Shown here: positions 972 to 35,334 of the stretch, piece by piece
Position numbering within the stretch: position 1 is the first letter of the stretch
Layout: every line of letters starts with the position of its first letter
DNA from: Candidatus Latescibacterota bacterium
GTDB taxonomy: Bacteria; Latescibacterota; UBA2968; UBA8231
Length of the DNA stretch: 64,000 nt
Assembly (NCBI GenBank): GCA_965215195.1
Contig: CBDCDC010000002.1
Location: 2,688,001 to 2,752,000, forward strand
Direction: 5' to 3'
Program-made: the position numbers and the translations under genes
Notes under the pieces: model-generated
Databases searched by the model: none
What the model was told of the DNA's origin: nothing
The model's input: the letters and a program-made list of their open reading frames with translations, nothing else

Positions 972-1732
972 TGCCGGCCATCCAAGTTGAGCGGCTCTCC
1001 TTTGCCTACGAAGAGAGGCCGATCCTCAACGATATCTCGCTGGAGATCCCGGCGGGGCAGTTCACCGTTCTCCTCGGCAAAAACGGCAGCGGCAAATCAA
1101 CCCTCATGCGCATTCTCGGCGGTTTCCTCGACTTCGAGCGCGGCAAAGTGCGTATCATGGGGGAGGAGCTCCGCTCCTTCTCGTCTCGGCGGCGGGCCCG
1201 CGTCCTCGGCTACCTGCCCCAGCACCACCGGCCGGTCTTTCCCTTTTCCGTGCAGGACGTGGTTCTGACCGGCCGCGCCAGCTACGTCACCTACGTCCCC
1301 AAGCAGGAGGACGTGGAAATCGGCATCGCCGCGCTGGAGCGGGTCGGCATTATCCACCTGAAGGAGCGCCCGTACACCGAGCTGTCGGGGGGCGAGCAAC
1401 AGCTCGTCCGCATCGCCCGGGTTCTGGCCCAGCAGCCCCGTCTCATCCTCCTCGACGAACCCAGTTCGCACCTCGACTTCCTCAACCAAGCGCACCTGCT
1501 GCGCCTAATCCGCGAGTTGGTCGATGCCGACCTCACCGTCCTCGCCGTCCTGCACGACCCCAACAGCGCCTTCCTCTACGGGGATCACTTCATTTTTCTC
1601 AAGGATGGTGCAGTAGAGCGGCTACCAGCGGCCGAACGGCCGTGGGACCGCGACTTCTTGGAGCGGATCTACGACACTGAGATGGATTCAATCCCCTACG
1701 GCGACCGCGCTCTCGTGGTGCCGAAGGGGTGA
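959..1732 (+). CDS. Iron-chelate ABC transporter ATP-binding protein
   Basis: Walker A GKNGSGKST, LSGGE signature, LLDEP; overlaps the permease stop. Confidence 0.93.
   Translation: MGDLVPAIQVERLSFAYEERPILNDISLEIPAGQFTVLLGKNGSGKSTLMRILGGFLDFERGKVRIMGEELRSFSSRRRARVLGYLPQHHRPVFPFSVQDVVLTGRASYVTYVPKQEDVEIGIAALERVGIIHLKERPYTELSGGEQQLVRIARVLAQQPRLILLDEPSSHLDFLNQAHLLRLIRELVDADLTVLAVLHDPNSAFLYGDHFIFLKDGAVERLPAAERPWDRDFLERIYDTEMDSIPYGDRALVVPKG
1640..1732 (+). repeat. 93-bp direct repeat, copy 1 (3' end of ABC ATPase gene through TGA)
   Basis: Identical by eye to 2669-2761. Confidence 0.95.
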
Positions 1733-1845
1733 GGGAACGTGCCGGAGATGAATGCACGTGAGGCATTGTAAGCCGCTGGCCTCCCTATGGCGGCGATCGA
1801 GAAGCGGGTTACCTCAATAACGACGCCTGCGATTCACAATTTGAC

Positions 1846-2475
1846 TCAGGTACGCCTAAACCCTTCGCAAATGCGAGGAATGCAAATACTGCCCCAGCAC
1901 TTCTGGGTCAACTCAGCAGCCTGTGGCGGAAATGCGCCATGTACGACCTTAATGCCTCTTGTTCCCAGAAATTCCACTACGGGAACGAAATCTCGGTCGG
2001 AGGAAGCCAGAACGGCTACATCGTAGTTGGCGACCCAAGCCAGACTGATCATCTCAGTCGCAATTCTCGTGTCAATGCCTTTTTCTTCAGTGCCGCGCAT
2101 GTCCGCGTTGCATCTCGGGCACTGGGACACGACTTGGTGACAGGCCGGGCAGGTCGGCCCCCTGTGCTTGCGCCTCCTCGGCACCATTGTGACGTGTACA
2201 CCGGGAAATGTATTGAGCGTGCGAGTTGACCAGCGGCGCAACTCCTGATCGCGGTCGCTATATGAACCATAGACATTCATTCCCTGATAATCGACATGTG
2301 CAGTCTCGTCGATAATAAGCAAGGCTTCCCGCGCCAAATGTGGACCCAAGGCACGCCAGTCGATCTTGAAATCGGGCCGAGCTTCCCTTACGGAAAGCTC
2401 AAAATTCCAGAAGTCGACGAACACCCTTACGCGAACGCGATGTTCAGCAACGAGCTCATCACGGCACTCATCCAA
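1846..2475 (-). CDS. NYN/LabA-DUF88 (PIN-fold) nuclease with CxxC...CxxC insertion
   Basis: VFVDFWN, EEKGIDTRIA and ASSDRDFVP acidic motifs; CPAC...CPRC; TTG start 7 nt after GGAG. Confidence 0.88.
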   Translation of the reverse strand: MDECRDELVAEHRVRVRVFVDFWNFELSVREARPDFKIDWRALGPHLAREALLIIDETAHVDYQGMNVYGSYSDRDQELRRWSTRTLNTFPGVHVTMVPRRRKHRGPTCPACHQVVSQCPRCNADMRGTEEKGIDTRIATEMISLAWVANYDVAVLASSDRDFVPVVEFLGTRGIKVVHGAFPPQAAELTQKCWGSICIPRICEGFRRT

Positions 2476-2486
2476 ACTTTAACTCC

Positions 2487-2524
2487 AAAAATAAAAACAG
2501 GGACACCCACAAGAGTGTCCCTGT
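2487..2524 (-). terminator. Intrinsic terminator directly upstream of the NYN RBS
   Basis: Minus strand ACAGGGACAC-TCTTGTGG-GTGTCCCTGT followed by TTTTATTTTT. Confidence 0.8.
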
Positions 2525-2600
2525 CGCATACGCATAGAGTAATAATAATCAAGTGGTCGTTGATCCTGTCTGCCAGGCGACTTCTTGATGGATTTTAATA
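2490..2600 (-). ncRNA. Candidate structured leader or antitoxin RNA upstream of NYN gene
   Basis: Lies between a predicted promoter and a terminator; nested pairing ATCAAG/CTTGAT, GTCG/CGAC, CCTG/CAGG (2548-2589). Confidence 0.5.
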
Positions 2601-2606
2601 CTATTC

Positions 2607-2635
2607 AAAGTAATTGATCATGCCGCTGTTGTCCA
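2607..2635 (-). promoter_or_regulatory. sigma70-like promoter for the NYN leader
   Basis: TGGACA-17 nt-TACTTT on minus strand. Confidence 0.55.
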
Positions 2636-2668
2636 CACTCCATCGGGTAATCTTTGGATTTTTAGCGA

Positions 2669-2761
2669 CCGTGGGACCGCGACTTCTTGGAGCGGATCTA
2701 CGACACTGAGATGGATTCAATCCCCTACGGCGACCGCGCTCTCGTGGTGCCGAAGGGGTGA
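2669..2761 (+). repeat. 93-bp direct repeat, copy 2 (displaced 3' end of ABC ATPase gene)
   Basis: Identical to 1640-1732; ends 7 bp before the convergent gene's stop. Confidence 0.95.
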
Positions 2762-2768
2762 ACGACCA

Positions 2769-3845
2769 TCAGCCGCTGTGCAGGACGAGGTCGCGGGCGT
2801 CGCCGCTCAGCGGCAGCTCAACCCAAGCACCGCCGGCGCGGTGGGAGGCGTGAAAGGCGATAATCGCCTCCAGAGTACGCACGGCCTCCCCTGCGTCGTA
2901 GGAGAAGGGTCCCGCCCCGTCGAGCCAATGGACGATCTCGGCAACGGCCCGGTCCATGCCGCTACCGGGGAAATCGTCGGGCAGGTACTCGCGGTCGTCG
3001 CCGCGCACGATCTCGATGTCGCGGCCACGGCAGATAGCATAGCCTTCGGTGCCGTGGAAGCGGTGGCGCATAGGCGCGGTGCCGTAGTCGGCTGCGTCAA
3101 CCGTGCAGATCAAATCGCCCCTCGGTGCGCCGGCGGCCGCGGGCAAGTCGCGTCCGAGGCGCAGCAGGCCCCAGCCGCCAGGATCGGCGAAGGCTGCGCC
3201 GCGGCAGTCGGATTTCCCCGACAGGTCAAGGGTGCCGGAGACCGCAGTCACCGGCAGGCCAGTAGCCATCTGCACGGCGTCGATCATGTGCGTACCCACG
3301 TTGCCGAGGCGGCCAGAGGTCCACTGGAGCGAGGCCGAGGTCAGGGTGCCGAGGACACCAGCGGCGATGCGGTCGCGCAGCACCCGATAGCCGGGGTGGA
3401 AGCGCAGGTTGTGGTTGATGACGAGCAGGGCACCGGCCTCGTTACAGGCGGACAACATGCCCTCGGCCTCGGTGACCGTCGCCGCAACGGGCTTTTCGCA
3501 GTAGATGGCGCGGACACCAGCTTCCACTGCCGCTTGGGTGATCTCGGCGTGGACGGGCGTGTACGTGGCAACCGAGACGATGTCGAGGGGCGCGGCCGCG
3601 CCGAACATCTCGCGCCAGTCGGCGAACACGGGCACGCCATAGCGCGCGTGGAAACGCGCGCGTCGCCCGTCGTCGCGGCTGCTACCAGCGACTAGATCGA
3701 CCCGGTCGTGGTTGCGCAGTGCCCCTACGTGCGTACCGTCGAGATCCTCAACGCGCTGGCCGAGGGCGTCGCCCGAGACCTGATCCGCACCCCCGATAAA
3801 GCCCAGCCCCACGATTGCTGCACGGTATCTCGTTTCTCCTGTCAT
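2769..3845 (-). CDS. Gfo/Idh/MocA family oxidoreductase
   Basis: IVGLGFIG Rossmann motif, CEKP, GTHMID; AGGAGG RBS before MTGETR. Confidence 0.9.
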   Translation of the reverse strand: MTGETRYRAAIVGLGFIGGADQVSGDALGQRVEDLDGTHVGALRNHDRVDLVAGSSRDDGRRARFHARYGVPVFADWREMFGAAAPLDIVSVATYTPVHAEITQAAVEAGVRAIYCEKPVAATVTEAEGMLSACNEAGALLVINHNLRFHPGYRVLRDRIAAGVLGTLTSASLQWTSGRLGNVGTHMIDAVQMATGLPVTAVSGTLDLSGKSDCRGAAFADPGGWGLLRLGRDLPAAAGAPRGDLICTVDAADYGTAPMRHRFHGTEGYAICRGRDIEIVRGDDREYLPDDFPGSGMDRAVAEIVHWLDGAGPFSYDAGEAVRTLEAIIAFHASHRAGGAWVELPLSGDARDLVLHSG

Positions 3846-3875
3846 AGCATTCCTCCTAGACATTGCCCCAAATCA

Positions 3876-5024: not shown

Positions 5025-5113
5025 GGCAGTACCTTGGCAGTCGCGGCCGGAGGTCAGGAGAGTTCCCGCGCAAATTCGCAGGTCCAATCGACGACCCGGA
5101 AACCGTAGAAGGA

Positions 5114-5142
5114 AGGGTATATCTCTTAGAGAATGATGTCAA
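5114..5142 (-). promoter_or_regulatory. sigma70-like promoter
   Basis: TTGACA-17 nt-TACCCT on minus strand upstream of the amidohydrolase. Confidence 0.5.
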
Positions 5143-5145
5143 CGA

Positions 5146-5248
5146 GTAGTGGGTCTCTTTGAAAATTACACGGGCGGCGGGGGTGGACGGATCGTGCGGC
5201 ACACTCGGCGTCCGAGGACTAGCGTAAAAATTCAAAGGGACCCACCAC
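5146..5248. mobile_element. Small inverted-repeat element (MITE-like, family 2)
   Basis: GTAGTGGGTCTCTTTGAAAATTAC ... GTAAAAATTCAAAGGGACCCACCAC imperfect IR; a similar end occurs at 21090-21109. Confidence 0.5.
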
Positions 5249-5401
5249 GAATCTTCTACGCCGAATTTAAGTATCGAGCGCAGCTTGACCCACCATTAGA
5301 AACGCCGTTTATTCGGCCCATCTACTGTCGCCTCCAACCTTGCGCAACCACGGCTCCCATCTCCCCAAGACATTCTCTGTGCCGAAATCACCCGTCGAAT
5401 C

Positions 5402-5914: not shown

Positions 5915-5949
5915 ACGGAAACGATTCCCCATCCCCGAAAGGCTTTCGC

Positions 5950-8628: not shown

Positions 8629-9879
8629 ATGAGTTCTTGTGCTGTTAAAGACGTCGTGCGCACCGTGCTACACGTGCCGTTCCACGCACGCTGCGCCGAC
8701 GCCATGGAAGTCTACGGGCCGGGTTGGTCCATCGTCGAGCTGATCGAAGTAGAGACCGAGGGCGGCGTTGTCGGCATTGGCGAGACGATTCAGGGATATA
8801 CGTGGGGCCACTCGCGCCAAGCGCAGTTTGCCCGCGTGCGCGGTCGGAATGTTTTCGAGGTGCTGTGGGACGACTCGCTGGGGGCCGGCTTGCAGATGGC
8901 GCTTTTCGACGCGGCCGGCAAGCACCTAGGCGTACCCTGCCACCGGCTGATGGGGCCGCAGCACCGCGACGCCTGTCCGGTTTCTTGGTGGGCGCAAAGT
9001 ATGCCACCCGCAGCGTGGGCGGCCGAGGCTCGGACGGCCGAGGCGCATGGTTTTACCACCATGAAGGTCAAGGCGCGGCCTTGGTACGATATTGCGGCGC
9101 AGTTGCAGGCCGTGGACGAGGCCACCTCTCAGCACTTCAAGTTAGATGCCGACTTCAACACCATGTTGCTGGGGGTTGACCAAGCCGCCCCGCTCATCGC
9201 GCGCTTAGAGCGAGACAACGCCTGTCTCGCCATCGTTGAGTCGCCGATTCCGCAGGACGACGTGGAGGGCAACAAGCTCCTGCGGCGCAAGATCCAATCT
9301 CCAATCGCCATGCACATAGGCCAGCCGCCGCCCATGACGGCGATCCGCGAGGGTGTGTGCGATGGGTTTGTCATCGGCGGCGGAGTGAGCCGCGTCTTGA
9401 GCGACGGCAACTTGGCCGCGCGGGCGCACCTGCCGTTCTGGTTGCAGATGGTGGGCACTGGCCTGACCGCGACCTTTGCGGCGCACTTGGGGGCGGTGCT
9501 AAAGCAAGCGCGCTGGCCGGCGATTCCCTGCGTCAACATCTATTCGCACGTTTTGGTGCAGGAGTTCGCCGTGGAGGGGGGGCATCTGCGGGTGCCGGAG
9601 GCACCGGGCTTGGGGGTTGAGTTGGACCGGGAGGCCGTGGAGCGCCTGCGCGTCGAGCCGGACTTTGCAAAAGCGCCGGTGCGCCAAATACACGCCGTGC
9701 GCTGGCCCGACGGTCGGGTCCTCTGGGCTGCCGACGGCAGCTACCGCAGCGATTTCACTGCTGGCAAGCGAACCGGGTTCTTGCCGGGGATGCAGCTAGA
9801 GGTGCGGCTCGACGACGGCAGCGAAGAATTTGATCGAGAGTACCGGGAGCGGTTTCCGGGGCGAGCGAAGAGACGCTGA
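8629..9879 (+). CDS. Mandelate racemase/muconate lactonizing enzyme family protein
   Basis: ETEGGVVGIGE, KVK, D.N, ESP and PEAPGLGVELD motifs. Confidence 0.88.
   Translation: MSSCAVKDVVRTVLHVPFHARCADAMEVYGPGWSIVELIEVETEGGVVGIGETIQGYTWGHSRQAQFARVRGRNVFEVLWDDSLGAGLQMALFDAAGKHLGVPCHRLMGPQHRDACPVSWWAQSMPPAAWAAEARTAEAHGFTTMKVKARPWYDIAAQLQAVDEATSQHFKLDADFNTMLLGVDQAAPLIARLERDNACLAIVESPIPQDDVEGNKLLRRKIQSPIAMHIGQPPPMTAIREGVCDGFVIGGGVSRVLSDGNLAARAHLPFWLQMVGTGLTATFAAHLGAVLKQARWPAIPCVNIYSHVLVQEFAVEGGHLRVPEAPGLGVELDREAVERLRVEPDFAKAPVRQIHAVRWPDGRVLWAADGSYRSDFTAGKRTGFLPGMQLEVRLDDGSEEFDREYRERFPGRAKRR
9733..9878 (+). repeat. 146-bp direct repeat, copy 1 (3' end of racemase gene)
   Basis: Matches 10996-11141 with 3 mismatches. 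Confidence 0.95.
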
Positions 9880-9920
9880 GACGATTCGATGAATGGACTA
9901 CTGTGACGTTGATGGAGGCC

Positions 9921-10298
9921 TCAACTCGTGTATTGACGCAACCATATTTTGACTGAGCGACTCGTTTCGGGCGAGCGGCTCAGTGCGGCTCTTATATGAG
10001 ACAGATCGTCTCGGGAAAGACTGCCTGCTTCCTTGATCTGCCGGAGTACCATGCGGTCAATTAATTTTTTTACAGGTGCAATGCGGGTATCGTGGATAAA
10101 ATGGGTGCGGTTCGTAGAAGGCAAGCAGGTCGGCTCTATAATGACTACATCCTCACCCTCGTCGTCTTCATAGAGCGGGTGCAATAGTGCCACCAGTACC
10201 TCCTGAGCACGAGAAGGATCGGTCAGAATTAGGAACAGCCGAAAAGGCTGTGCGGTCATGCGAAGGATCGAGCCAGCCTTCAACACTATGAAAGCCAC
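9921..10298 (-). CDS. Putative toxin, possibly PemK/MazF-like fold, partner of Panacea antitoxin
   Basis: 125 aa; overlaps the Panacea gene end; LFLILTDP..VLVALL strand pattern; fold assignment is inference. Confidence 0.55.
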   Translation of the reverse strand: MAFIVLKAGSILRMTAQPFRLFLILTDPSRAQEVLVALLHPLYEDDEGEDVVIIEPTCLPSTNRTHFIHDTRIAPVKKLIDRMVLRQIKEAGSLSRDDLSHIRAALSRSPETSRSVKIWLRQYTS

Positions 10299-10858
10299 TC
10301 GTCGAGTTGGTTGCTCACCTTTACGCGCGCTACGACTTCCTGTATATAATCGTCCTCTTTTCCCAAGGCCGTGAGAATGTCCTCTAGGGGCAACGGCCGA
10401 CTAGCCGGCCCCACAGGATCGGCACCGGGGTCTTGCCATTCGGGAAGATGATCGTGGGTATACTGGACCAATTCTTGCCAAGGCCAACTGCCAAAATGTG
10501 CTACCACCTCTTGAGCGATGCCGATCTCGTTTTCCGACATTGCCTCAATCGTCAGGGGATCTTGTACCAGTTCTATATGATAGGTCCCCTTTCGGCGAAT
10601 ATGGCTCTGCCAGACTGATTCACGCTCCGGCCACGGTGGCTCTCGAATAAGGTCATAGGTTCGGCTTAAAACGGGACCATGAGCCATCGACACATAGACA
10701 TCGGTAGAAATCGGCCATCCTCGCTCGTTTAGTGCCGCGCGGTCCACCAAGTACATTAGCTTTATGAGCTTGATATACTCCATCGAACCGCCGGCCTCGC
10801 GCAACAACACAACGGCCAGTTCGGTGACCTTTCGGAGATTAAAGCGCAAGTTTTCCAT
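10286..10858 (-). CDS. Panacea (DUF4065/SocA-like) antitoxin
   Basis: IKLIKLMYLVD, MAHGPVLS and LVQYTH..LPEW motifs. Confidence 0.88.
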   Translation of the reverse strand: MENLRFNLRKVTELAVVLLREAGGSMEYIKLIKLMYLVDRAALNERGWPISTDVYVSMAHGPVLSRTYDLIREPPWPERESVWQSHIRRKGTYHIELVQDPLTIEAMSENEIGIAQEVVAHFGSWPWQELVQYTHDHLPEWQDPGADPVGPASRPLPLEDILTALGKEDDYIQEVVARVKVSNQLDEWLS

Positions 10859-10995
10859 AGGGCATCTTTAGGAAAAGGGTATATCTAGTTAGGTACCAAT
10901 AAACGAAAACCGTGTCAATTCTAAAAGGCTGCCTCATGCGGCCAGCCCATTGGGCCGATGCGGATCAGACCCAAACGGACGGAGCATGTGGGCCT

Positions 10996-11172
10996 GACGG
11001 CAGTTACCGCAGCGATTTCACTGCTGGCAAGCGAACCGGGTTCTTACCGGGGATGCAGCTAGAGGTGCGGCTCGACGATGGCAGCGAAGAATTTGATCGA
11101 GAGTACCGGGAGCGGTTTCCGGGGCGAGCGAAGAGACGCTGCGAGTTGGAAGGTTCCCATGCGACGAACTGA
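10996..11172 (+). pseudogene. Displaced 3' end of racemase gene (repeat copy 2 plus in-frame tail CELEGSHATN*)
   Basis: 146-bp match to 9733-9878; followed by a terminator. Confidence 0.85.
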
Positions 11173-11214
11173 CTGTGTTTTGAGGTGCCGTCACGCAACT
11201 TTAGCTAAAAGAGG

Positions 11215-11251
11215 AAGCGGCCCGTGTCGAGAGACATTGGCCGCTTTTTTT
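11215..11251 (+). terminator. Intrinsic terminator
   Basis: AAGCGGCC..TGTC-GAGA-GACA..GGCCGC followed by T7. Confidence 0.75.
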
Positions 11252-11292
11252 GTGCTGTTGGCCTTGCGGAAACGCTGCTGAATAATACCCCC

Positions 11293-11370
11293 TCACTTGA
11301 GCACGGCGACGGCCACGCCCATGGCTGTGATGAGGATGCTGGTGCAAGCGATGAGCATGGCCATCAGCCG
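11293..11370 (-). pseudogene. Separated 3' (membrane-anchor) end of the coiled-coil gene starting at 13685
   Basis: Translates RLMAMLIACTSILITAMGVAVAVLK*; joins in frame to ...DSRYARL through shared CAGCCG; resembles the C-terminus of paralog 57494-58228. Confidence 0.8.
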
Positions 11371-11483
11371 GGGTTCTGGGGGTAGTCGCCTATGTTACCG
11401 TGGAGGATGAACACGGTCGCCTGCTGGGTACGCAGCATGCCGCAGACGGTCTCGTCATACCACGACAGGGGGCGGAGGCTCAT
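11364..11483 (-). pseudogene. Truncated gene start at the insert edge (possibly AAA ATPase N-terminus)
   Basis: MSLRPLSWYDETVCGMLRTQQATVFILHGNIGDYPQNPG*; ATGA overlap with the upstream ORF; stop formed at the junction. Confidence 0.4.
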
Positions 11484-11716
11484 CCGAACGACTCCTCGCC
11501 TAGGATGACCGCAGAAACAGACAGCTGGTCCTGGGTCTCTTCGTCGTCGGCGTTGTAGGGGAGAAAGAGGTCGGGGGTGTTGGGGTCGGCTTGGACATCG
11601 GTGGCCACGACGCTGCCCGCGTACAGCCGCCAGTAGCCCACCGAGCTGTCGGTCAGCACGAGGGCCTCGGGCTCACAGTGGGACGTGAGGAGGTCACACA
11701 GTTCCTTGACCGTCAT
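11480..11716 (-). CDS. Small acidic hypothetical protein (phage/ICE-like)
   Basis: GAAAGGAG RBS before MTVKELCDLL; 78 aa. Confidence 0.55.
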   Translation of the reverse strand: MTVKELCDLLTSHCEPEALVLTDSSVGYWRLYAGSVVATDVQADPNTPDLFLPYNADDEETQDQLSVSAVILGEESFG

Positions 11717-11765
11717 AGGGTCTCCTTTCGGGGGATAGGGAAGGGAACGTATAGACTTAGCCCCA

Positions 11766-12479
11766 CTAAATGAGGCGTTCTTTTTTGCGATAGAGGCGGC
11801 AAATGTCATTCGGGGCCACCCTGAACTTCGTGCCGTGATTGCGTAGGCCCTGGCTGTCTGGCTTGGATTCCCGTGCATCGAAGTCTATGCACACAGACCC
11901 CGCGACCAGATCAAAGACGAAGAACGAAATCTGCAAGTCCTCAAAGCAATCAATCCGGTCAAAGGTTACAGTCCGTCCCTTTTTGGAACCCTGCACCAAC
12001 ACCAAGCGGCGCAATTTCGCTCCGGCCGCACTGAGAATATCGTCTTGCGCCCAATAGGGGATTGATCCGTTGCCGCCAATGGGACGGACAAAAATCTGGT
12101 TGGCGTCGGAGTCCACCCGAAAGCGGTCTGATTTACCTCGAATCGTATGACGAAAACTGCGCCGTCCGTGCTGGTCCTTCTGCCCAAATCGCCTGACCAT
12201 GTAGCGCATAATCCCCGCAGGCTTTGGCTCCTTGTGGAACAGCGTTACTAGGTGCGTCTGGGGCGTGTAGTACTTCAACTCCCAACCGAGGCTATCGGGT
12301 ATATCCGCGTTGCCAGCGGTCAACCCAAGTAGGTCCTCTAAGAAGTTGCCGGGGGCCCCTGTGCCATTGTAGCGCGACTGGTGGGGCATTTCATGGGGAG
12401 ATTGCTGGACCACATTGACGAGGCGTTCAAACAGTTCCTTACCCGTCTTAGGTGGGGCTGGTCTGAACTGTACCGTCAT
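11766..12479 (-). CDS. MvaI/BcnI family restriction endonuclease
   Basis: GNFLEDLLGL...IPD...WELK, TLFHKEP, RNHGTKFR; adjacent to an MTase. Confidence 0.85.
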   Translation of the reverse strand: MTVQFRPAPPKTGKELFERLVNVVQQSPHEMPHQSRYNGTGAPGNFLEDLLGLTAGNADIPDSLGWELKYYTPQTHLVTLFHKEPKPAGIMRYMVRRFGQKDQHGRRSFRHTIRGKSDRFRVDSDANQIFVRPIGGNGSIPYWAQDDILSAAGAKLRRLVLVQGSKKGRTVTFDRIDCFEDLQISFFVFDLVAGSVCIDFDARESKPDSQGLRNHGTKFRVAPNDICRLYRKKERLI

Positions 12480-13326
12480 GGCGAAGGAGCTTCCTCTGTG
12501 CTTGGATGCGTTCCCGAGCAAGTTGACAATAATCCTCTGACAACTCAAAGCCTATCCATTGGCGCTTACAGCCTTCCGCTGCAAGGGCCGTAGAACCAGA
12601 CCCCATAAAGGGATCGAGGACCACGGGCGCGTCGGTGGCCTGAATACAGCGTTGGGGCAACGCTACGGGGAAGGGAGCCGGGTGGGGATTGTTACTCTCT
12701 TGGGGGATTTTCCACACATCGCCTACGGCGTTGGCTTTATCAGCAAGGCGGAACTCTTTTTTGCAGATTAGATAAATCACTTCATAGCAGGGGAGGAAGT
12801 ACCCCTTGTTGAAGTTAATACCGCCTGCTCGCTGCCAAATGATAATCTGGCGTACAGGAAAGCCCTTGACTATATCCGCTCGATCTTGGAGCAAGCCATT
12901 TTGAACACGCCATTTGTGATTGTAGAAGATGCAACCGTCATTGCGAAGAACACGCATCATCGCTCGCAGACACTGGCGTTGCCATTTGACATACGCATCG
13001 TGCGGCATGTTGTCGCCGTGATCGGCATAGCCCTTGATAAGCTCCGCCTTTTCCCACTTGCCGCCTCGTCCGTCTTTCATGCCGTTACCGGACGAGTTGC
13101 GGAGGTTGTACGGAGGACTAGTAACGATTACGCTAATGGATTCTTTGGGGAGCTTTTTAAGCAGCTCGACGCAATCGCCTTGATGCACTTTGCCAACCCA
13201 ATCCGCTAGCGCAGAGAGGGGGGGGATGCGATTGACGGCGGAAGAGAGTGTGCCATTGAAGGAGAGGGGAATATGTAGCTTGAGTTGCTCGCTCATGCTA
13301 TTAGCCGGTGGCTTGACGATGCTCAT
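12448..13326 (-). CDS. Beta-class N4-C/N6-A DNA methyltransferase
   Basis: VTSPPYN precedes HPAPFP and VLDPFMGSGST. Confidence 0.92.
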   Translation of the reverse strand: MSIVKPPANSMSEQLKLHIPLSFNGTLSSAVNRIPPLSALADWVGKVHQGDCVELLKKLPKESISVIVTSPPYNLRNSSGNGMKDGRGGKWEKAELIKGYADHGDNMPHDAYVKWQRQCLRAMMRVLRNDGCIFYNHKWRVQNGLLQDRADIVKGFPVRQIIIWQRAGGINFNKGYFLPCYEVIYLICKKEFRLADKANAVGDVWKIPQESNNPHPAPFPVALPQRCIQATDAPVVLDPFMGSGSTALAAEGCKRQWIGFELSEDYCQLARERIQAQRKLLRHDGTVQTSPT

Positions 13327-13439
13327 GGGGGGATCCTTTCACCCGGGTACAGGTAGTCGCCTAGGATGCGACCGACCATGAAGGCGAGGTACAGGTCGGG
13401 GGGGTCGGCGAACAGCGGCTGCTCCTCATCGGGATCATC

Positions 13440-13685
13440 CAGCCGCGCATAGCGCGAGTCGAGTTGTTTAGCTAAGTCGTCGATGCGCTCGTTCATCTCG
13501 GTGCGCAAGTCGTCCATACGCTGATTCATCTCGGTGCGCAGGCCATCAATGCGCTCGTTGGTCTGGTCGATGCGCTCATTGGTTTGGCGCAGGTCTTGGC
13601 GCAGGTCCTGAATATCCTCGCGCAGGAAGCTCAGAGCGAGGGTGGACTCTGTTGGCTGGACGGGTTTGGGTGCTTGCTCGGCCAT
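13440..13685 (-). pseudogene. 5' part of a coiled-coil membrane-anchored protein gene, interrupted by the R-M insert
   Basis: GGAGG RBS; LSFLREDIQDLR shared with paralog (ISYLREDIQDLR); reads on into insert sequence to 13323. Confidence 0.8.
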
Positions 13686-21364: not shown

Positions 21365-21521
21365 GGCGACGGATCCCAAGCGGCCGTTTGGCGATCCGTC
21401 CCAACCCGCGCCGCATGTTGCCCGTGCGGCCTTCGTCTGTACGCCGTGACCGTCGTCCGCCATGGCGGCCGGTTCCTGTTCCTTTCTATCCACCCCTTTA
21501 TTTCGTAGAAGGAGGCAAACA

Positions 21522-29525: not shown

Positions 29526-29560
29526 AGACGACGCTTGTATGTTGAACATCCTCATGGCAC

Positions 29561-29630
29561 TCGGGCGCACTTTGACAAGCTCAGTGCGCGTTGAGCTATC
29601 GTGGGTGCTGAGCCTGTCGAAGTGCCCCGA
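29561..29630. repeat. REP-like inverted pair
   Basis: GCACTTTGACAAGCTCAGTGC ... GTGCTGAGCCTGTCGAAGTGC long hairpin. Confidence 0.7.
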
Positions 29631-29672
29631 ATCGACGCGTCTAGCAACTCTTATATAAGGAGACGACAACCC

Positions 29673-30833
29673 ATGAAAATCAGCGACATCAAAGCCTATC
29701 CTACGTGGGTCGGCCACCGCAATCAGCTCATCGTCAAGGTCGAAACCGACGAAGGCATCCACGGCTGGGGCGAGTCCGGGCTATCCGGGCGCGAGCTCGC
29801 CGTAGTGGGCGCAGTGCGGCACTACCGGGAGTTTTTGCTCGGGCGCGACCCGCGCGAGATCGGGCGGCTCTGGCAGGAGATGTACCGCGGCCAATACTTT
29901 GAAGGCGGGCGGGTGTTGACCGCGGCGATTTCGGCCATTGACATCGCCTTGCACGACGTGGTGGGCAAGGCCCTCGGGGTGCCGGTGTACCAGCTTTTGG
30001 GCGGCAAGCAGCGCGAGTGGGTGCCCTGCTTTGCGACGACCGGAGCACCGGACCTAGAGACCTTGGTCAAAAACTGCAAGCTGCTGTTGGACAAGGGGTG
30101 GGACGTGATTCGCACGGGAATCGCCCAGCGCAAACAGTACGACGACGAGCGGCTGTTCGAGCCGCGCGAGACCATCGGCATCACGGCGGCTTGGCTGACG
30201 GAAGTGCGCCAAGAAATTGGTCCCGACCCGATCTTGGGCATTGACTATCACCATCGGCTGACGGTTGCCGAGAGCGCGTCGTTCTGCCAGAAGATGCGGC
30301 CGGGGACGCTCGACTTCCTCGAAGAACCCATCCGCGACGAGTGCCCGGAAGCCTACGAATCGCTCCGCACCATGACCGACGTGCCCTTTGCCATCGGCGA
30401 GGAGTTTGCCAGCAAATGGCAGTTTTTGCCCTATCTCGAACGGGGCATCGCGCAGTTTGCGCGGATCGACGTGTGCAACGTCGGCGGGCTGACCGAGTCG
30501 ATGAAGGTGGCGAGCTTGGCTGAGTCGCACTACATCGACCTGATGCCACACAATCCGCTGGGGCCAATCTGCACCGCCGCGACCGTGCATCTGGCGGCGG
30601 CCGTGCCCAACTTTGCGTGGCTTGAGCATCGGGTGACGCCGACCGAAGCAGGGAAGTTCATGGACGAGGAATTGTTTCCGGTGCAGTGCGAATTGGTGGG
30701 TTCCATGTTGAAGGTGCCCGAGGGGCCGGGGTTGGGCGTGGAGTTCAACGAGGAACTGGCCGCGGAGCAGGAGTTCAAGTTTTGGGAAGCGCCGCATTTG
30801 CGCCGGCGGGATGGGTCGCATACGAACTGGTAG
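29673..30833 (+). CDS. Mandelate racemase/galactonate dehydratase-like protein
   Basis: AAGGAG RBS; VETDEGIHGWGE, EEP, AIGEE, MPHNPLGP. Confidence 0.92.
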   Translation: MKISDIKAYPTWVGHRNQLIVKVETDEGIHGWGESGLSGRELAVVGAVRHYREFLLGRDPREIGRLWQEMYRGQYFEGGRVLTAAISAIDIALHDVVGKALGVPVYQLLGGKQREWVPCFATTGAPDLETLVKNCKLLLDKGWDVIRTGIAQRKQYDDERLFEPRETIGITAAWLTEVRQEIGPDPILGIDYHHRLTVAESASFCQKMRPGTLDFLEEPIRDECPEAYESLRTMTDVPFAIGEEFASKWQFLPYLERGIAQFARIDVCNVGGLTESMKVASLAESHYIDLMPHNPLGPICTAATVHLAAAVPNFAWLEHRVTPTEAGKFMDEELFPVQCELVGSMLKVPEGPGLGVEFNEELAAEQEFKFWEAPHLRRRDGSHTNW

Positions 30834-30839
30834 TGGCTA

Positions 30840-30898
30840 TTTTGAATGTTCCTCCAGATTAGTTGAACTTTTTTGGAGTTTACTCCAGAATGGTTCAG
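30840..30898. repeat. Orphan copy of the AAA-ATPase upstream region
   Basis: Close match to 32859-32917; includes palindrome TGGAGTTTACTCCA. Confidence 0.75.
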
Positions 30899-30911
30899 TG
30901 AATTCGATGTG

Positions 30912-30929
30912 GCAACTAAATATAGTTGC
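30912..30929. promoter_or_regulatory. Palindromic hicAB-type operator
   Basis: GCAACTA-AATA-TAGTTGC upstream of hicB. Confidence 0.65.
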
Positions 30930-31006
30930 TCCTCTATACAGGGGGCATACATTCTTTTTTAGGAATGCGCTTAGATGCCTAAAGCCCTTGAACAGGAGGG
31001 ACTGAT

Positions 31007-31486
31007 ATGAAAGGCATGATGACTTATAAGGGTTACACCGGCTCGGTGCACTACGACGACGACGAGCGGATTTTCTACGGCAAGCTCGAATTTATCCGCG
31101 ATCTGGTCAATTACGAGGGGACGGATGTGGACTCACTGCGCTCCGCTTTTGAGGAAGCAGTGGATGGCTATCTCGACCTATGTCGGCAGGAAGGACGACA
31201 ACCCGAACAGCCGTTCAAAGGCAGTTTTAACGTGCGGATGAGCAGCCAACTACATCGGCGGGTAGCCCTATGCGCCAAGGAGAAGGGCGCAAACCTCAAC
31301 CAAGTGGTCAAAGAGGCGTTGGAGCAGTACTTGGCTGGCGTAGCCCCCCCTTCGCCAAGTGCCTCGCGTTCCTATTGGGAGCTAATGGCAGATATACGCG
31401 CTCGACAGCAGGTGCGTGGCCATAAACCCCCAACTCGGGAAGAGGTTGATGCCGCCCTACACACTGAGCGGGAAAGCTGGGAGTAG
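31007..31486 (+). CDS. hicB: HicB antitoxin with chimeric C-terminal extension
   Basis: YKGYTGSV, FEEAVDGYL, PFKGSFNVR; preceded by hicA-like remnant KALEQEGLI* (30981-31010). Confidence 0.88.
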   Translation: MKGMMTYKGYTGSVHYDDDERIFYGKLEFIRDLVNYEGTDVDSLRSAFEEAVDGYLDLCRQEGRQPEQPFKGSFNVRMSSQLHRRVALCAKEKGANLNQVVKEALEQYLAGVAPPSPSASRSYWELMADIRARQQVRGHKPPTREEVDAALHTERESWE

Positions 31487-31594
31487 TAACCTATGCGGCT
31501 TTACCTAGATCTGGATCGCTTTAGCGGTATTAGATATGAATTGGTAACAGATGGGCCAAGGAAAACTCCCCAGCCTGAATGACTTGAGTTAAAG

Positions 31595-31669
31595 GTTTCC
31601 GGTGCAGTGCGAATTGGTGGGGTCAATGTTGAAGGTGTCGCATTTGCGCCGGCGGGATGGGTCGCATAC
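31595..31669 (+). pseudogene. Decayed duplicate of the racemase 3' end
   Basis: Matches 30674-30716 plus 30792-30823 with a 75-bp internal deletion. Confidence 0.88.
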
Positions 31670-31692
31670 CCTAGCGGCGATGCAGGCAGCCG

Positions 31693-32859
31693 TCAGAAAA
31701 TTACCTCACCGGCCCACAGCGACTGTAAAAACGCGTTCCAAGGCACAATGCGGATTGGGCCGACGACGCGCTCCGCCGGTTCATTGCAAACGACGAGTGC
31801 TTTTGAGGGCGCGTATTCATCGATAAATGCGCGTAGAGGCCGAAGGGCCTTGTCTTCTACCCGGCTCGTGCCCTTTACCTCAATGGCCACCTCGCCGCTG
31901 CCCAGCACAAAGTCAACCTCCAACCCCGACTTTGTGCGCCAAAAGTGAATGTCGTAATGTAACGCGTTATAAGAAGCGTGTGCCCTCAATTCGCAAAAAA
32001 TGAAATGCTCAAACGCCTTGCCAAAAACTGCGCCTTGCGCGTCCTGCAAATGTCGTTTCGCAAGGGTTCCGGCTACACCCACATCAAATAAGTAAAACTT
32101 GGATGCGCGCGAAATGACTTGGCGGCTTTGTCGTCTCTTGAAAGGTGCGACCATGCTGCCCAAAAGCGTATCAACGAGGATCTGATAATACTCTTTCACG
32201 GTCTTGGAACTGACGCCGCACTCGCGTGCGATATTGGAAAAGTTGGTCAACTCGCCGTGCGAGTATCCCAGCGCCTCAAAAAACCTGGAAAACGCTGGAA
32301 TATCGCGCGTCAATCCCTCGGCAAAAACCTCTTCCTTTAGGTAATCTTGCAGATATGCGTTCAGAGAGCGGCGGTATTGCATACTGGCAAAGTGATCGGG
32401 AATCAGGCCGCGATTCAAGATCGTCAAAAGATCCATATCGCCGTCGTTCAATTCATCGGTCACTAATGGAAACATTTCGTAGCGCCAAGCTCGTCCTCCG
32501 AGCAAATTGGCTCGTCCCCGCTTGAGCTTGCGCGCACTGGAACCACACAGGATAAAACGCAGCCCCTTGTTTTCAATGAGCCAATGCACTTCATCTAACA
32601 AGAGTGGTACGCGCTGCACTTCGTCCAAGATAATCGGCTGCGCCAGCAATGCTTCGGATTGTGTGAGTAGCTGTTCGCGCAGCAGGGCCGGCCGGCGGTT
32701 GAAATCCAGCATCAAATCCGTCTTAAGAAAATCATAGACCAAACTGTTGGGAAACGCCTGTTTGAGATAGGTGGATTTACCCGTCTTGCGCGGCCCCCAC
32801 AAAAAGGCCGACTGCCGCTTGGGCAAGTCCATTTCTAATCGCCGTAGATACTGAACCAT
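31693..32859 (-). CDS. AAA_14/DUF4143 family ATPase
   Basis: GPRKTGKST, ILDEVQ, CGSSA, KFYLFDVG, FWRTKSGLEVDFV, AIEVK. Confidence 0.92.
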   Translation of the reverse strand: MVQYLRRLEMDLPKRQSAFLWGPRKTGKSTYLKQAFPNSLVYDFLKTDLMLDFNRRPALLREQLLTQSEALLAQPIILDEVQRVPLLLDEVHWLIENKGLRFILCGSSARKLKRGRANLLGGRAWRYEMFPLVTDELNDGDMDLLTILNRGLIPDHFASMQYRRSLNAYLQDYLKEEVFAEGLTRDIPAFSRFFEALGYSHGELTNFSNIARECGVSSKTVKEYYQILVDTLLGSMVAPFKRRQSRQVISRASKFYLFDVGVAGTLAKRHLQDAQGAVFGKAFEHFIFCELRAHASYNALHYDIHFWRTKSGLEVDFVLGSGEVAIEVKGTSRVEDKALRPLRAFIDEYAPSKALVVCNEPAERVVGPIRIVPWNAFLQSLWAGEVIF

Positions 32860-32966
32860 TTTGAACCTTCCTCCAAATTAGTCGAACTTTTTTGGAGTTT
32901 AGTCCAAAATGGTCAAGCCGTCAAGCCGCGAGACGGCCCGTGCCGATCCAATGCGGCACGGGCCGC

Positions 32967-33131
32967 GACTTCGAAGATGCTGTTCTCCACGAGGCGGCAC
33001 GCCAAGCCGACGCCGATGCCTTAGTGACGCGCAACGAAAGCGATTTCAGAGCGGCGCTATTGGCGGTTTACGAACCGCGCGAATTGATCGCCATCGTCCA
33101 AGCCCGCCTTGCGGACCCACTTGATGAATGA
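32967..33131 (+). pseudogene. 3' fragment of a PIN-domain toxin gene
   Basis: DFEDAVLHEAA...ALVTRNESDF; no N-terminal half. Confidence 0.7.
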
Positions 33132-33142
33132 TCTTGCTGTAC

Positions 33143-33790
33143 CTAGGTACGGAGCAGTCGAGGCAACGCTGAAATGTCATTGATAACCGCAATTTTGGGT
33201 ACTTCGTTAAATTCAACTTTGCTCGTAGCACCTGATAGCACTGCAATAAAGGGCACCTTGGCCCGTGCGGCCGTTAACGCATCAACTTTACTGTCGCCCA
33301 CGTAAAGTACGTCACTAGCATCCATTTGCATTCTAGATATAGCGGTTGTCAAAGCGCCGGGATGTGGCTTGTGTTCGGCAACGTCTTCTCCGCCTATGAT
33401 GACGCCAAAGCGATTGGATAGTCCTTCTCTTGCTAGAATCTCCTCAATTCTATAGCGAAATTTCGTTGACACAATTCCCAGTTCAAAACCCATTTCGATC
33501 AATCGCTCAGTTGTCGCGGAGACGCTATCAAATACAGATGTTAAGTCCACCATAACCTGATCGGCCCGCTTGACAAAGTTGCTTGCGAACAAACTGACGT
33601 TCTGACCGTTTGCCTGCCCAGTCAAACGTAGAAAGGTGTCCTCCAAAGACATACCGATAGTTCGCTTAATTCGCTCGTCATCGGCTTGGGGCAGATTCAA
33701 CCTTTCCAGCGCAAAATTGACACACTCAATGATGCCTTTTGTTGAATCCGCTAGTGTAAGGTCGAAGTCAAAAATGATCGCCCGAGCCAT
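33143..33790 (-). CDS. HAD-family hydrolase (phosphoglycolate phosphatase-like)
   Basis: IIFDFDLTLAD, KPHP, YVGDS; lower GC than the backbone. Confidence 0.9.
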   Translation of the reverse strand: MARAIIFDFDLTLADSTKGIIECVNFALERLNLPQADDERIKRTIGMSLEDTFLRLTGQANGQNVSLFASNFVKRADQVMVDLTSVFDSVSATTERLIEMGFELGIVSTKFRYRIEEILAREGLSNRFGVIIGGEDVAEHKPHPGALTTAISRMQMDASDVLYVGDSKVDALTAARAKVPFIAVLSGATSKVEFNEVPKIAVINDISALPRLLRT

Positions 33791-33839
33791 AGCTTGTCGT
33801 GCGAATCCCTTTCTCAATACAGGGCGATGCGCCCGCTTC

Positions 33840-33906
33840 TGGTTGCCGACGATTAGGTAGGTGCCCGAAGTTGCGCGGGTGTGACGGCAATACACCCGCC
33901 GGTCGG
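33840..33906 (-). pseudogene. Decayed duplicate of the lactonase 3' region
   Basis: Matches 34379-34449 (PTGG..PRNFG..GTYLIVGN) with a 14-bp deletion and a small insertion. Confidence 0.75.
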
Positions 33907-34089
33907 TAGCGCACCGCCCGGTCCAAAAACGGCTCGGCGCTGTGTCTTACCGCGATTAGCAGAGCGGCATCGCATCGCCTAGCGCCAGCGAGTCGAGTAC
34001 GATCCGCTCGATCTCGGGGTGCTGCTCACCGCTTGAGACGCTCCAGCCACAACACCTTCACAGAGTGGACAAGCGTACGCTCTGCCTCC

Positions 34090-34263
34090 TTAGAAGCCGT
34101 CTGCTTCACCGCGCCTTTAGGCGTGACAAACCCCTGTCGGGCTGCTTTGCAAGGAGGTCCAGCGACCTCGGCATCCGGCGTTTTTCGAGGGCGAGACGCC
34201 CTCGATCCCAGCGGCTTGGAGTCAAGGCCGAGAGCGAAACCCTAGTTTTCAGACGGCTTCTTA
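34090..34263. mobile_element. MITE family 1, copy C (inverted relative to A)
   Basis: TTAGAAGCCGTCTGC ... GTTTTCAGACGGCTTCTTA; internal 28 bp is the reverse complement of 5819-5846; end coincides with the lactonase TAA. Confidence 0.75.
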
Positions 34264-35334
34264 GAACACCGGAATGAACTTGTGGCACACTGGCGATGGC
34301 ACTTCCGCCTTGTGCCCGGTCGGCGTCAGCTTCCCGGTGTCCTGATCAATTTTGAACGTGAAGATGTCGTCGGTGCTGTGGTTGCCGACGATTAGGTACG
34401 TGCCCGTGGGGTCGAGGCCGAAGTTGCGCGGGTTGGCACCGCCGGTCGGCACGATCTCCACGAGTGCGAGCTGGCCGGTGTCTTGGGCGATGGCATAGAC
34501 GGCAATGGAGTCGTGACCGCGGTTGGACCCGTAGAGAAAGCGGCCAGTGGGGTGGACGTGGATGTCGGCGGTGTGGCTGACCTCGGCATAGCCTTCGGGC
34601 AGCGTCGAGATCGTCTGAGTGGTGGCGAGCGTACCGGCGTCGGCGTCGTAGTCGAAAGCCGTGATGGTGTTGCTCAGCTCGTTGATGACGTAAGCGCGTT
34701 GGCTGTCGGGGTGGAAGGCGAGGTGGCGCGGGCCGCTGCCCGGGGCGATTTCCGCCGGCGTCTGTGCGACGAGCGTCCCCTCGTCGTGGTCAATGGCGTA
34801 GATGAGCACCTTGTCGATGCCCAAGTCTGGGGCCAAGGCGTGTTTGTTGTTGGGGGACACCATAATCGAGTGGGCGTGTGGCCCCTCTTGGCGGCCCGGG
34901 TTGACCGAAGAACCCTCGTGTTGGACGAAATCCGTGGCCGCGCCGAGCGAGCCGTCTTCCCGAATCGGCAGGATGGCAACGCTGCCGCCGCCGTAGTTGG
35001 CAACCAGCGCGTACTGGCCAGCGCGATCAATGCTGATGTGACACGGGCCAGTGCCCACGGTTGATTCGGTGTTAATGTGGGTCAAGGCTCCGCTCTGCTG
35101 GTCAATGGCAAAGGCCGCAACCGCGCCGCCGGGCCGGTCGCCGACCGCGCTAACCTCGCCGATGGCATAGAGGAAGCGGCGATTGGGCGCGATGTCTAAG
35201 AAGGAGGGGTTGTCAATGCCGCCAATGCTACTTTGATGCGCGAGCGCACCGGTGGCCATGTCGAGGCGATAGACGTGAATGCCGTCGTCATCGCCGCTGG
35301 AATAGGTGCCGATATAGACGAGATAATCGCTCAT
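34261..35334 (-). CDS. pgl: 6-phosphogluconolactonase-family beta-propeller lactonase
   Basis: YIGTY, NPSFL, ANYGGGS, PHAHS, GSGPRH, SNRGHDS; AAGGAG RBS (an upstream start with signal peptide is possible). Confidence 0.9.
   Translation of the reverse strand: MSDYLVYIGTYSSGDDDGIHVYRLDMATGALAHQSSIGGIDNPSFLDIAPNRRFLYAIGEVSAVGDRPGGAVAAFAIDQQSGALTHINTESTVGTGPCHISIDRAGQYALVANYGGGSVAILPIREDGSLGAATDFVQHEGSSVNPGRQEGPHAHSIMVSPNNKHALAPDLGIDKVLIYAIDHDEGTLVAQTPAEIAPGSGPRHLAFHPDSQRAYVINELSNTITAFDYDADAGTLATTQTISTLPEGYAEVSHTADIHVHPTGRFLYGSNRGHDSIAVYAIAQDTGQLALVEIVPTGGANPRNFGLDPTGTYLIVGNHSTDDIFTFKIDQDTGKLTPTGHKAEVPSPVCHKFIPVF

Follow-up and report, generated by a model that had tools for sequence, protein, structure and literature searches.

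Accessory cassettes between duplicated gene ends in a Latescibacterota genome: probable scars of host-mediated recombination

Small accessory cassettes are lodged behind ordinary genes in the genome of a Candidatus Latescibacterota bacterium (GenBank assembly GCA_965215195.1), each followed by an orphan second copy of the 3' end of the gene it follows, and these arrangements are probably the scars of host-mediated recombination at hot spots behind genes rather than insertions made by a dedicated recombinase. The stretch of DNA analyzed, hereafter the window, comprises 64,000 nucleotides of contig CBDCDC010000002.1 (positions 2,688,001 to 2,752,000), and the genome to which it belongs (G000) amounts to 6.13 Mb in two contigs. 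A preliminary description of the window, made from the letters alone, had placed four such pairs of duplicated 3' ends in it, and repeat comparison found all four where it had put them: each consists of a gene end (H1) and an orphan copy (H2) around accessory DNA, with 89-99% identity between the copies. The targets are an ABC transporter ATPase, two enolase-superfamily enzymes, and a lactonase, and the cargo stretches have a GC content of 0.50-0.56 compared with 0.62-0.66 in the host genes. Pfam and BLAST searches also agreed with the cargo as described, namely an NYN gene (pair 1), a SocA_Panacea gene with a 125-aa partner (pair 2), a HicB gene (pair 3), and a miniature inverted-repeat transposable element (MITE; pair 4). 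The convergent-gene setting claimed for all four pairs does not apply to pair 4, where the lactonase gene and the HAD gene both lie on the minus strand. The comparison collection holds one genome per species, diverged by at least 6%, and all comparisons below are therefore between species.

The anatomy of the cassettes is displayed by pair 3, which lies behind a dehydratase-like gene and exists in at least six states across species. In G001 the gene is followed by the HAD and lactonase genes with no cassette; a DUF4143 cassette lies between the gene and the HAD gene in G045, a HicB cassette takes this place in G009, and G043 has DUF4143 followed by HicB. The order in G000 and G018 is gene, HicB, orphan gene end, and DUF4143, while G042 has the gene, DUF4143, a PIN fragment, orphan gene pieces, and HicB, so that the stacking of cassettes proposed earlier is met in both orders. 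The HicB block stands directly behind the gene in G009, G011, G041, and others, and the DUF4143 cassette does so in G045, G043, G042, and G002. Alignments showed that each gene-end copy continues as in a single-cassette species and that only the joint between cargo and orphan is new; each event therefore comprises one homologous and one illegitimate junction. The new joint, with a filler of 5-6 nt, is common to G000 and G018, and G042 possesses a junction of its own in the opposite order. The orphan of G000 matches the gene in two blocks (30674-30716 with 31595-31637 and 30795-30823 with 31641-31669) and carries a 75-bp deletion, in line with the decay that had been supposed for older copies, and the orphan of G018 is undeleted behind the same junction and only 78% like its gene.

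Some details of this locus deserve a separate record. The stretch 30839-30894 duplicates the start of the DUF4143 gene together with its ribosome site, and the 56-nt repeat that it forms with 32858-32913 was considered as an attachment-site (att)-like sequence or a MITE and rejected on the grounds of this origin and of its having only two copies in the genome. In G042 the orphan is composed of a 159-bp and a 77-bp piece of the gene, with about 485 bp lost between them, and a 71-bp duplication of the PIN fragment is located at the other end of the incoming block. A 92% paralogue of the PIN_3 fragment of the window was found at G000:C2:3038089-3038263, about 0.8 kb from another orphan-bearing locus.

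Pair 2 lies behind the other enolase-superfamily gene. The cargo joins this gene at 9866|9867 and provides a new C-terminus, KRR-stop, and in the 23 aligned relatives the gene ends four bases further on with a TAG stop. The copies (9731-9881 and 10994-11144) show four mismatches, three of them within 9733-9878; weaker homology extends back to about 9710 and 10975, and the orphan includes the first 12 nt of the left end of the cargo. Of the 23 loci at which the gene is at least 89% identical, 20 lack the cargo, all with the native TAG stop, and many of these cargo-free loci have a conserved hydrophobic open reading frame (ORF) of 23 codons on the opposite strand within about 10 bp. Cargo and orphan are both present in G004 and G007, which share the right junction of G000. 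G043, in turn, has the cargo behind an intact native stop with no second gene-end copy within 8 kb, and its sequence runs on past the point where the G000 cargo meets the orphan, so that it represents a donor-type allele. One homologous and one illegitimate junction are thus recognized at pair 2 as well as at pair 3, there both in G000/G018 and in G042, which is the anatomy expected if a variant gene end was joined in together with its cassette, as the preliminary description had suggested.

The pair 2 cargo of G000 is 96.6% identical to that of G004 and 95.2% to that of G007, against about 92% for the upstream gene, indicating that the cassette crossed between species after they had split. 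Behind the G000 orphan stands a remnant of the G043-type region instead of the empty-site sequence, so the site was already layered. The last ~110 bp of the gene (window 9730-9840) occur across the genus as two allele classes, about 80% alike, with mosaic alleles in G041 and G044, which is a sign of frequent recombination inside this gene end. G007 has a gene copy of one class and an orphan of the other; in G004 both copies belong to one class and share private variants, and in G000 both belong to the other. The three H1/H2 differences within 9733-9878 are all variants present in the working genes of other species. G021 and G044 bear the mark of a different event at this site, a 290-bp insert bracketed by a 79-bp duplication that takes in the gene end as well as the end of the small ORF.

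A transfer RNA (tRNA) was considered as the target of pair 2 and discarded, as ARAGORN found no tRNA in the window and the conserved 78-bp element proved to be the small ORF. This very hydrophobic 23-codon ORF (window 11293-11370, minus strand) is 85-95% conserved across the genus, has a second copy in G000 (C2:2449493-2449568), and forms three tandem units with the next 53 bp in G022; its product could be a small membrane peptide. Next to it lies a restriction-modification (RM) cassette (window 11371-13440) that contains a 132-aa ORF and the genes for an MvaI/BcnI-family endonuclease (11766-12548, minus) and an N6_N4 methylase (12448-13326, minus). G004 and G022 lack this cassette, 11370 being joined directly to 13441 in them; as its only flanking repeat is the 6-nt CAGCCG, it is a plain illegitimate insertion with no long duplication. 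Part of its left end (11367-11740) is found again, with 91% identity, on the other contig (G000:C1:1113097-1113480).

At pair 1, both copies terminate on the TGA stop of the ATPase gene and are identical at 95 of 96 positions, exactly so from 1640 onwards. The site is empty in 14 of 24 same-genus genomes, with flanks overlapping by ~99 bp (six verified by alignment): a single gene-end copy is followed by the convergent gene, and the sequence past H2 in G000 matches that of these genomes. The NYN cargo with both gene-end copies was found in one genome, G002, where the right junction is the same as in G000, and the insertion therefore arose once; the G000 orphan has lost 24 nt near this junction. 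Since the cargo is 87.5% identical between the two genomes, like the flanking genes (89.2% and 87.7%), the block is as old as the species split. The copies differ from each other at one site in G000 and three in G002, compared with about 10 of 96 sites between the genomes, and this likeness within and unlikeness between genomes shows that the copies were homogenized in each genome, which points to gene conversion. Their near-identity is therefore no sign of recency.

At pair 4, the part of the lactonase gene represented in the orphan (34379-34449) lies 119-189 nt from the stop. The filling is made up of a 178-bp piece, partly common to G045 and G046, and of the MITE, which gave about 50 BLAST hits on both G000 contigs and has copies in other genomes of the genus. 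The HAD-lactonase spacer is 480 bp long in G000 and 64-86 bp in G009 and G001. Different lactonase fragments occupy the same place in G000 (119-189 nt from the stop) and G045 (518-550 nt), and they seem to be differing remnants of an older, longer orphan, which again fits the decay proposed for older copies. A HicB_lk_antitox gene lies just upstream of the lactonase gene (window 35412-35693, minus). The features of the four pairs are collected in Table 1.

Table 1. Features of the four repeat pairs, in window positions.
Feature	Position	Strand	Basis or remark
Pair 1: target gene, ABC transporter ATPase	959-1732	+	Pfam ABC_tran 8.1e-31
Pair 1: H1, last 96 bp of ATPase gene	1637-1732	+	repeat D5
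Pair 1: cargo, 933 bp, GC about 0.52-0.55	1733-2665		contains NYN gene
Pair 1: NYN-domain gene	1846-2475	-	Pfam NYN 1.1e-13
Pair 1: orphan gene end H2	2666-2761	+	95/96 identical to H1
Pair 1: convergent GFO_IDH_MocA gene, 7 bp past H2	2769-3863	-	Pfam
Pair 2: target gene, enolase superfamily (MR_MLE)	8629-9879	+	Pfam
Pair 2: H1	9710-9881, clear from 9731	+	alignment with 23 relatives
Pair 2: cargo, 125-aa ORF and SocA_Panacea gene	9867-10974		Pfam
Pair 2: 125-aa ORF	9921-10298	-	without Pfam match
Pair 2: SocA_Panacea antitoxin-like gene	10286-10858	-	Pfam 1.9e-20
Pair 2: orphan H2, stop altered to TGC	10975-11144	+	alignments
Pair 2: remnant of G043-type post-gene region, hairpin then T run	11145-11292	+	three-way alignment
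Pair 3: target gene, enolase superfamily, dehydratase-like	29601-30833	+	Pfam MR_MLE_C 2e-48
Pair 3: H1	30674-30823	+	repeat comparison
Pair 3: proximal cassette	30839-31594	+	Pfam, alignments with relatives
Pair 3: HicB gene	31007-31486	+	Pfam
Pair 3: segment Y	31510-31589	+	alignment
Pair 3: filler at illegitimate junction	31590-31594 as aligned	+	alignment
Pair 3: orphan gene end H2, 75-bp internal deletion	31595-31669	+	alignments
Pair 3: distal cassette	31693-33131	-	Pfam
Pair 3: AAA_14/DUF4143 ATPase gene	31693-32859	-	Pfam
Pair 3: DUF4143 gene start region	32858-32913	-	repeat with 30839-30894
Pair 3: PIN_3 fragment	32892-33131	+	Pfam
Pair 4: target gene, 7-bladed lactonase	34261-35415	-	Pfam Lactonase 8.7e-123
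Pair 4: downstream HAD gene	33143-33895	-	Pfam HAD_2 1.8e-38
Pair 4: orphan lactonase fragment	33840-33906	-	matches 34379-34449 with indels
Pair 4: filling, 178 bp and MITE	33907-34269		BLAST, comparison with relatives
Pair 4: MITE-like element, about 185 bp	34085-34269		terminal inverted repeats (about 15 nt)

Unrelated to the cassettes, a gene for a leucine-rich repeat (LRR) protein (window 21462-22910; Pfam LRR_4 and LRR_8) contains internal repeat units of 66-72 nt, and it explains the repeat families D1, D2, D4, and D6.

That the pairs are artefacts of assembly, in which strain variants of a metagenome-assembled genome (MAG) were strung in series, is scarcely credible. The lineage is known from MAGs, as shown by the titles of relatives such as 'MAG: Candidatus Latescibacterota bacterium', the contamination of G000 is put at 8.5%, and the junctions of pair 4 are without independent confirmation. 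However, other species, whose genomes were assembled separately, have identical junctions (G002 for pair 1, G004 and G007 for pair 2, and G018 for pair 3), so that these three pairs are not assembly artefacts. Logan contigs (X16, X18) also span H1-cargo-H2 of pair 1 (1703-2698) and cargo-H2 of pair 2 (10326-11033) with no differences, although these runs may be the source of the window. Further Logan contigs (X1, X2), from another study and with ~1-3 other letters per 100, were not used as evidence: the pair 2 cargo has a cover of 0-0.6 (9714-11015) against 11-14 beside it in X1, and the depth over the pair 1 cargo is about half (X1) or almost none (X2) of that of the flanks. Among the 15 of 31 joints shown, none crosses either cargo, and no circle junction is listed, which is evidence neither of absence nor of an empty form. 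Most runs that contain a small fraction of the sampled words carry sponge or marine metagenome labels.

The arrangement is not confined to the window. Genes were called with a crude codon-usage caller of our own (4612 genes, covering 85% of the genome), and near repeats were taken as two-copy repeats of 40-400 bp that lie 250-5000 bp from each other and share at least 90% identity. G000 contains 43 direct and 2 inverted near repeats; at distances above 5 kb the pairs number 28 direct and 16 inverted. Of the 43 near direct pairs, 16 touch a called gene at its 3' end, against 7.2 +/- 2.4 under random placement, and 0 of 1000 random placements reach 16; together with the ratio of 43 to 2, this excludes chance, and the genome-wide check proposed in advance thus revealed an enrichment of direct repeats at gene 3' ends. 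The orphan lies downstream of the gene in all 16 of these pairs (54% under random placement), and both copies are inside genes in only 8 of 43 near direct pairs, compared with 23 under random placement. A looser gene-by-gene tally found 34 genes with a downstream orphan 3' end and 22 with an upstream orphan 5' end, the reverse arrangements numbering 13 and 11, respectively, and the inverted cases 0-2. An enrichment of the 5'-end class was considered from this tally (22 vs 11) and abandoned when it was lost in the two-copy set; duplications at 5' ends and duplications spanning both gene ends nevertheless occur. Across 23 3'-end loci with repeats at least 88% identical, the repeat measures 41-315 bp and the cargo 337-5451 bp, and the copy on the gene side terminates no more than 8 nt from the stop codon in 12 loci, further on in 9, and short of it in 2. 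No common motif was seen by eye at the junctions of 22 loci, a comparison made without a formal motif search, and the same inspection is consistent with the earlier impression that the sites share no att-like sequence.

Codon differences between the copies provide a further line of evidence. The statement that these differences are all synonymous holds for most of them and not for all; pair 2, with its diverged left part included, has four synonymous and two non-synonymous differences. Over 21 loci at least 90% identical, 53 differences are synonymous and 33 non-synonymous (62% synonymous), to be compared with ~25% for random change, ~38% for our rough model of in-situ duplication plus decay (P = 8e-6), and ~77% for two working alleles. 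This excess speaks for two copies that each functioned as a working allele while most of the differences built up, some decay having followed. As a test of polarity, the occurrence of the orphan's variants in relatives was considered and set aside, as a retained ancestral state yields the same result; junction anatomy was used instead.

Pfam searches with 29 ORFs from 20 further loci matched 13; a named cargo gene is present at 12 of these loci, and 8 have none. The families comprise N6_N4 methylase, Eco57I/TaqI-type, HEPN, DUF4258 (twice), DUF3800, HTH_37 with Gp49, PIN, Fic, AAA_14/DUF4143, ParE, and Schlafen AlbA_2 with HATPase_c_4, which we take, in part after the Pfam wording, to be linked to toxin-antitoxin (TA), restriction, or defence functions; RM cargo was found at two of the 20 loci (L045, L046). 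The PIN cassette of L055 is flanked by a 206-bp repeat with 98% identity, and its site is empty in 7 of 30 genus genomes, so that empty sites, whose presence in related genomes had been named as a check, are now known for pairs 1, 2, and 3 and for L055. The HTH_37/Gp49 cassette of L053 has a 264-bp repeat; its cargo is contiguous with the gene in 5 of 30 genomes, in 3 of which a second gene-end copy lies just beyond. Behind the L053 orphan, a stretch of ~490 bp (G000:C2:3136908-3137400; L053:1809-2301) is found at up to 14 places per genome, with 72-85% identity, in most genus genomes, and is apparently a multi-copy element or a gene family.

No recombinase or transposase family was detected by Pfam among these 29 cargo ORFs, the window cargo, or its neighbours. 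The absence of recombinases from the window, as first reported, was upheld: the four matches to the tyrosine recombinase family (PF00589) in the 6.13-Mb genome all lie elsewhere, and ten ORFs of 129-28728 contain no recombinase family. A search of the whole genome for resolvases (serine recombinases) also found none. The cassettes could have been conceived as remnants of integrase islands or prophages that carried a replacement 3' end and have since lost the integrase by deletion. Phage 21 and e14 integrate into the 3' end of icd in E. coli and bring a replacement end; the form is the same, a direct 3'-end repeat of which one copy restores the whole gene, and addictive TA genes could be the survivors of deletion. 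Such an origin is nonetheless very unlikely, considering that four tyrosine recombinase matches and no resolvase stand against at least 16 3'-end sites, that the cargo retains no recombinase family or fragment, and that the repeats, 41-315 bp long, have no shared core. Moreover, the layers of pair 3 are two single-cassette alleles of other species, and 5'-end and both-end duplications exist as well. An integrase acting in trans is conceivable and would fit poorly, as no motif is common to the ends. ComEC and DprA homologues are present, yet they were also matched in 10-11 of 14 control genomes, and being near-universal they say nothing on competence. Rfam searches over 1-36000 gave no family at gathering score, where the presence of an attC model in Rfam was not checked.

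Another possibility is a dedicated, unrecognized insertion mechanism, in which a long target duplication arises from staggered nicks and fill-in or from a break made by a cargo nuclease, the cassettes coming from non-homologous sources and both repeat copies from the recipient. The copies do share genome-specific variants at pair 1 in both G000 and G002 and at pair 2 in G004, the L055 cargo occurs at this site in no other genome and has its homologues at other loci, and much of the cargo is nuclease by Pfam name (NYN, PIN, HEPN, restriction enzymes). Restriction-enzyme double-strand breaks were indeed proposed as the driver of comparable insertions in the available excerpts of Furuta, Abe and Kobayashi 2010 (PMC2853133). 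This mechanism is rather unlikely here, since the joint between gene end and cargo is a normal allele elsewhere at pairs 2 and 3 and only one junction per event is novel, and since the copies of G007 belong to two allele classes. The right junction is, in addition, common to genomes whose copies differ, so the sameness within a genome arose after the event. The cargo is furthermore diverse and often devoid of a DNA nuclease (HicB, SocA, ParE, Fic), and the synonymous differences are in excess.

Recombination by the host with DNA from relatives, the preferred explanation, could proceed as follows. DNA of a related genome would bring a different cassette for the same locus; homologous pairing would anchor one of its sides to the gene or to the downstream neighbour, and the other side would be joined illegitimately, which amounts to homology-facilitated illegitimate recombination; circularization followed by a single crossover would be equivalent. 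If the anchoring crossover fell in an upstream part of the gene and the illegitimate joint further along within the recipient gene, the intervening stretch would be exchanged, and the net product would be the gene, a new end, the new cassette, the old end, and the old downstream sequence, with nothing lost. The gene would stay whole, a complete end being supplied, and an orphan gene end of 40-300 bp would come to lie between two cassettes. Joints further downstream would delete close-packed neighbours and such products would be lost, so that in a compact genome the survivors would be duplications at gene ends. Once formed, the block could spread between species via ordinary homologous recombination in the flanks; gene conversion would sometimes homogenize the two copies, the orphan would otherwise decay, and recombination between the copies could precisely delete the cassette. 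TA and RM cargo predominates, probably because addictive genes resist deletion and are what varies at these places, and the prevalence of addictive cargo may thus represent survivorship between direct repeats of ~100 bp.

Several points weigh against this explanation. One-sided homology was demonstrated for pairs 2 and 3 but not for pairs 1 and 4; no donor-type allele, i.e., cargo without duplication, was found for pair 1 among the same-genus genomes, for pair 4 in the relatives, or for L055 in 30 genus genomes, where the cargo is at this site in none and the closest VapBC-like homologues (75-87%) were met elsewhere in the genomes of G009, G007, and G003, without flanking repeats, so that another route of arrival is possible in these cases. 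All recombination steps are read from end products, the newcomer copy is not distinguishable, and an anchor in the downstream gene gives an identical product; the divergence of at least 6% in a collection with a single genome for each species left no fresh event to polarize. The 5'-end duplications are not enriched (7 of 43 vs 5.1 random, P = 0.24), the synonymous share of 62% is intermediate between ~38% (rough model of in-situ duplication) and ~77%, and the gene-end statistics depend on crude gene calls. Finally, no homologue of the end-joining enzyme Ku was found in the genome.

A more elaborate version, in which the gene-end repeats serve as portable homology arms, appears unlikely. The cassette with one repeat would loop out as a circle via host RecA and re-enter related genomes at the corresponding gene end, and gene conversion would match the arms to each host, constituting an integrase-free exchange network or 'distributed integron'. 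If true, such a network would shape what these symbiont-type bacteria possess in TA, restriction, and defence genes.

The movement of small genes for defence, restriction, and TA systems in the absence of any mobility gene has long been a question, and insertion with long target duplication of RM genes was reportedly described by Nobusato and colleagues in 2000. From then until 2010 the phenomenon was linked to restriction enzymes, and its mechanism was not settled. As far as the available excerpts of Furuta, Abe and Kobayashi 2010 (PMC2853133) go, such inserts lack mobility genes, are bounded by repeats of 46-423 bp, and can be compared with an empty site in relatives; most examples are from species with natural competence, a start or stop codon frequently falls within the repeat, whereby the target gene remains intact, and double-strand breakage or some other property of restriction systems is suggested as the cause. 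The loci described here resemble this class in that a unit without mobility genes is enclosed by long direct repeats (41-315 bp), which are two-copy in the genome, and that the target is single-copy in empty-site genomes (pair 1, 14/24; pair 2, 20/23; pair 3, G001; L055, 7/30). Unlike the class of 2010, the window pairs carry NYN, SocA_Panacea, HicB/DUF4143, and MITE cargo and no RM genes, and with mostly TA or accessory cargo a restriction-enzyme break is not the common cause. They also differ from the class as described in the many events within one genome, the evident gene conversion between copies, and the donor-type alleles and both stacking orders, by which one junction is seen to be homologous.

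Homology-facilitated illegitimate recombination itself was reportedly described by de Vries and Wackernagel in 2002, Prudhomme and colleagues in 2002, and Meier and Wackernagel in 2003. One end is anchored by homology and the other joined at microhomology or with filler, trapping foreign DNA, and the experimental products were reportedly for the most part insertion-deletions. The surviving natural products would here be insertion-duplications at gene ends instead. Displacement arrays in Rhs genes are likewise said to have been reported by Jackson and colleagues in 2009. For the type VI secretion system (T6SS) effector-immunity modules of Vibrio cholerae, sequential displacement by homology-facilitated illegitimate recombination was proposed by Kirchberger et al. 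2017 (PMC5361080), whose available excerpts note the same idea for Rhs orphan arrays. As in these C-terminal displacement arrays, a new module is inserted beside a conserved gene part and older 3' parts with their companions are pushed downstream with no integrase. Unlike the arrays of T6SS, Rhs, and contact-dependent inhibition (CDI) systems, in which the array has a function, the present loci have no variable toxin domain with an immunity gene and repeat the near-identical end of an ordinary gene, and the duplicated ends of metabolic or transport genes appear to be a by-product.

Core-gene hot spots and the minimal mobile elements of Neisseria exchange their contents by double crossover and are not known to leave duplicated gene ends. 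The present loci are like them in that differing cassettes occupy one site between core genes and are exchanged via flanking homology. Accessory and defence cassettes between conserved genes are also described, in the excerpts at hand, for the core defence hotspots of P. aeruginosa (PMC10250203). The likeness to integrons lies in small, promoter-poor cassettes, often TA, stacked serially at a fixed place; in contrast to integrons, no integron integrase is nearby, no shared end site was seen, and the sites are scattered over the genome. Nor do the loci qualify as integrase elements, with no recombinase in the elements and no common att core as judged by eye. Among the 15 papers listed of 21 found by a full-text literature search, no title or abstract start describes such TA cassettes, which is not proof that none exists.

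In this genus many loci are found in nature as they were before an event, as they became after it, and in the donor form, which points to ordinary host recombination plus one illegitimate joint, independent of the cargo, and gives an explanation, open to test, for the growth of accessory islets behind core genes; given gene conversion, near-identical flanking repeats need not imply a recent event. The pattern as such is already known for RM genes and matches insertion with long target duplication and the displacement arrays, to which the present loci add mostly non-RM cargo, donor-type alleles, both stacking orders, gene conversion, and a high count in a single genome of an uncultured lineage.

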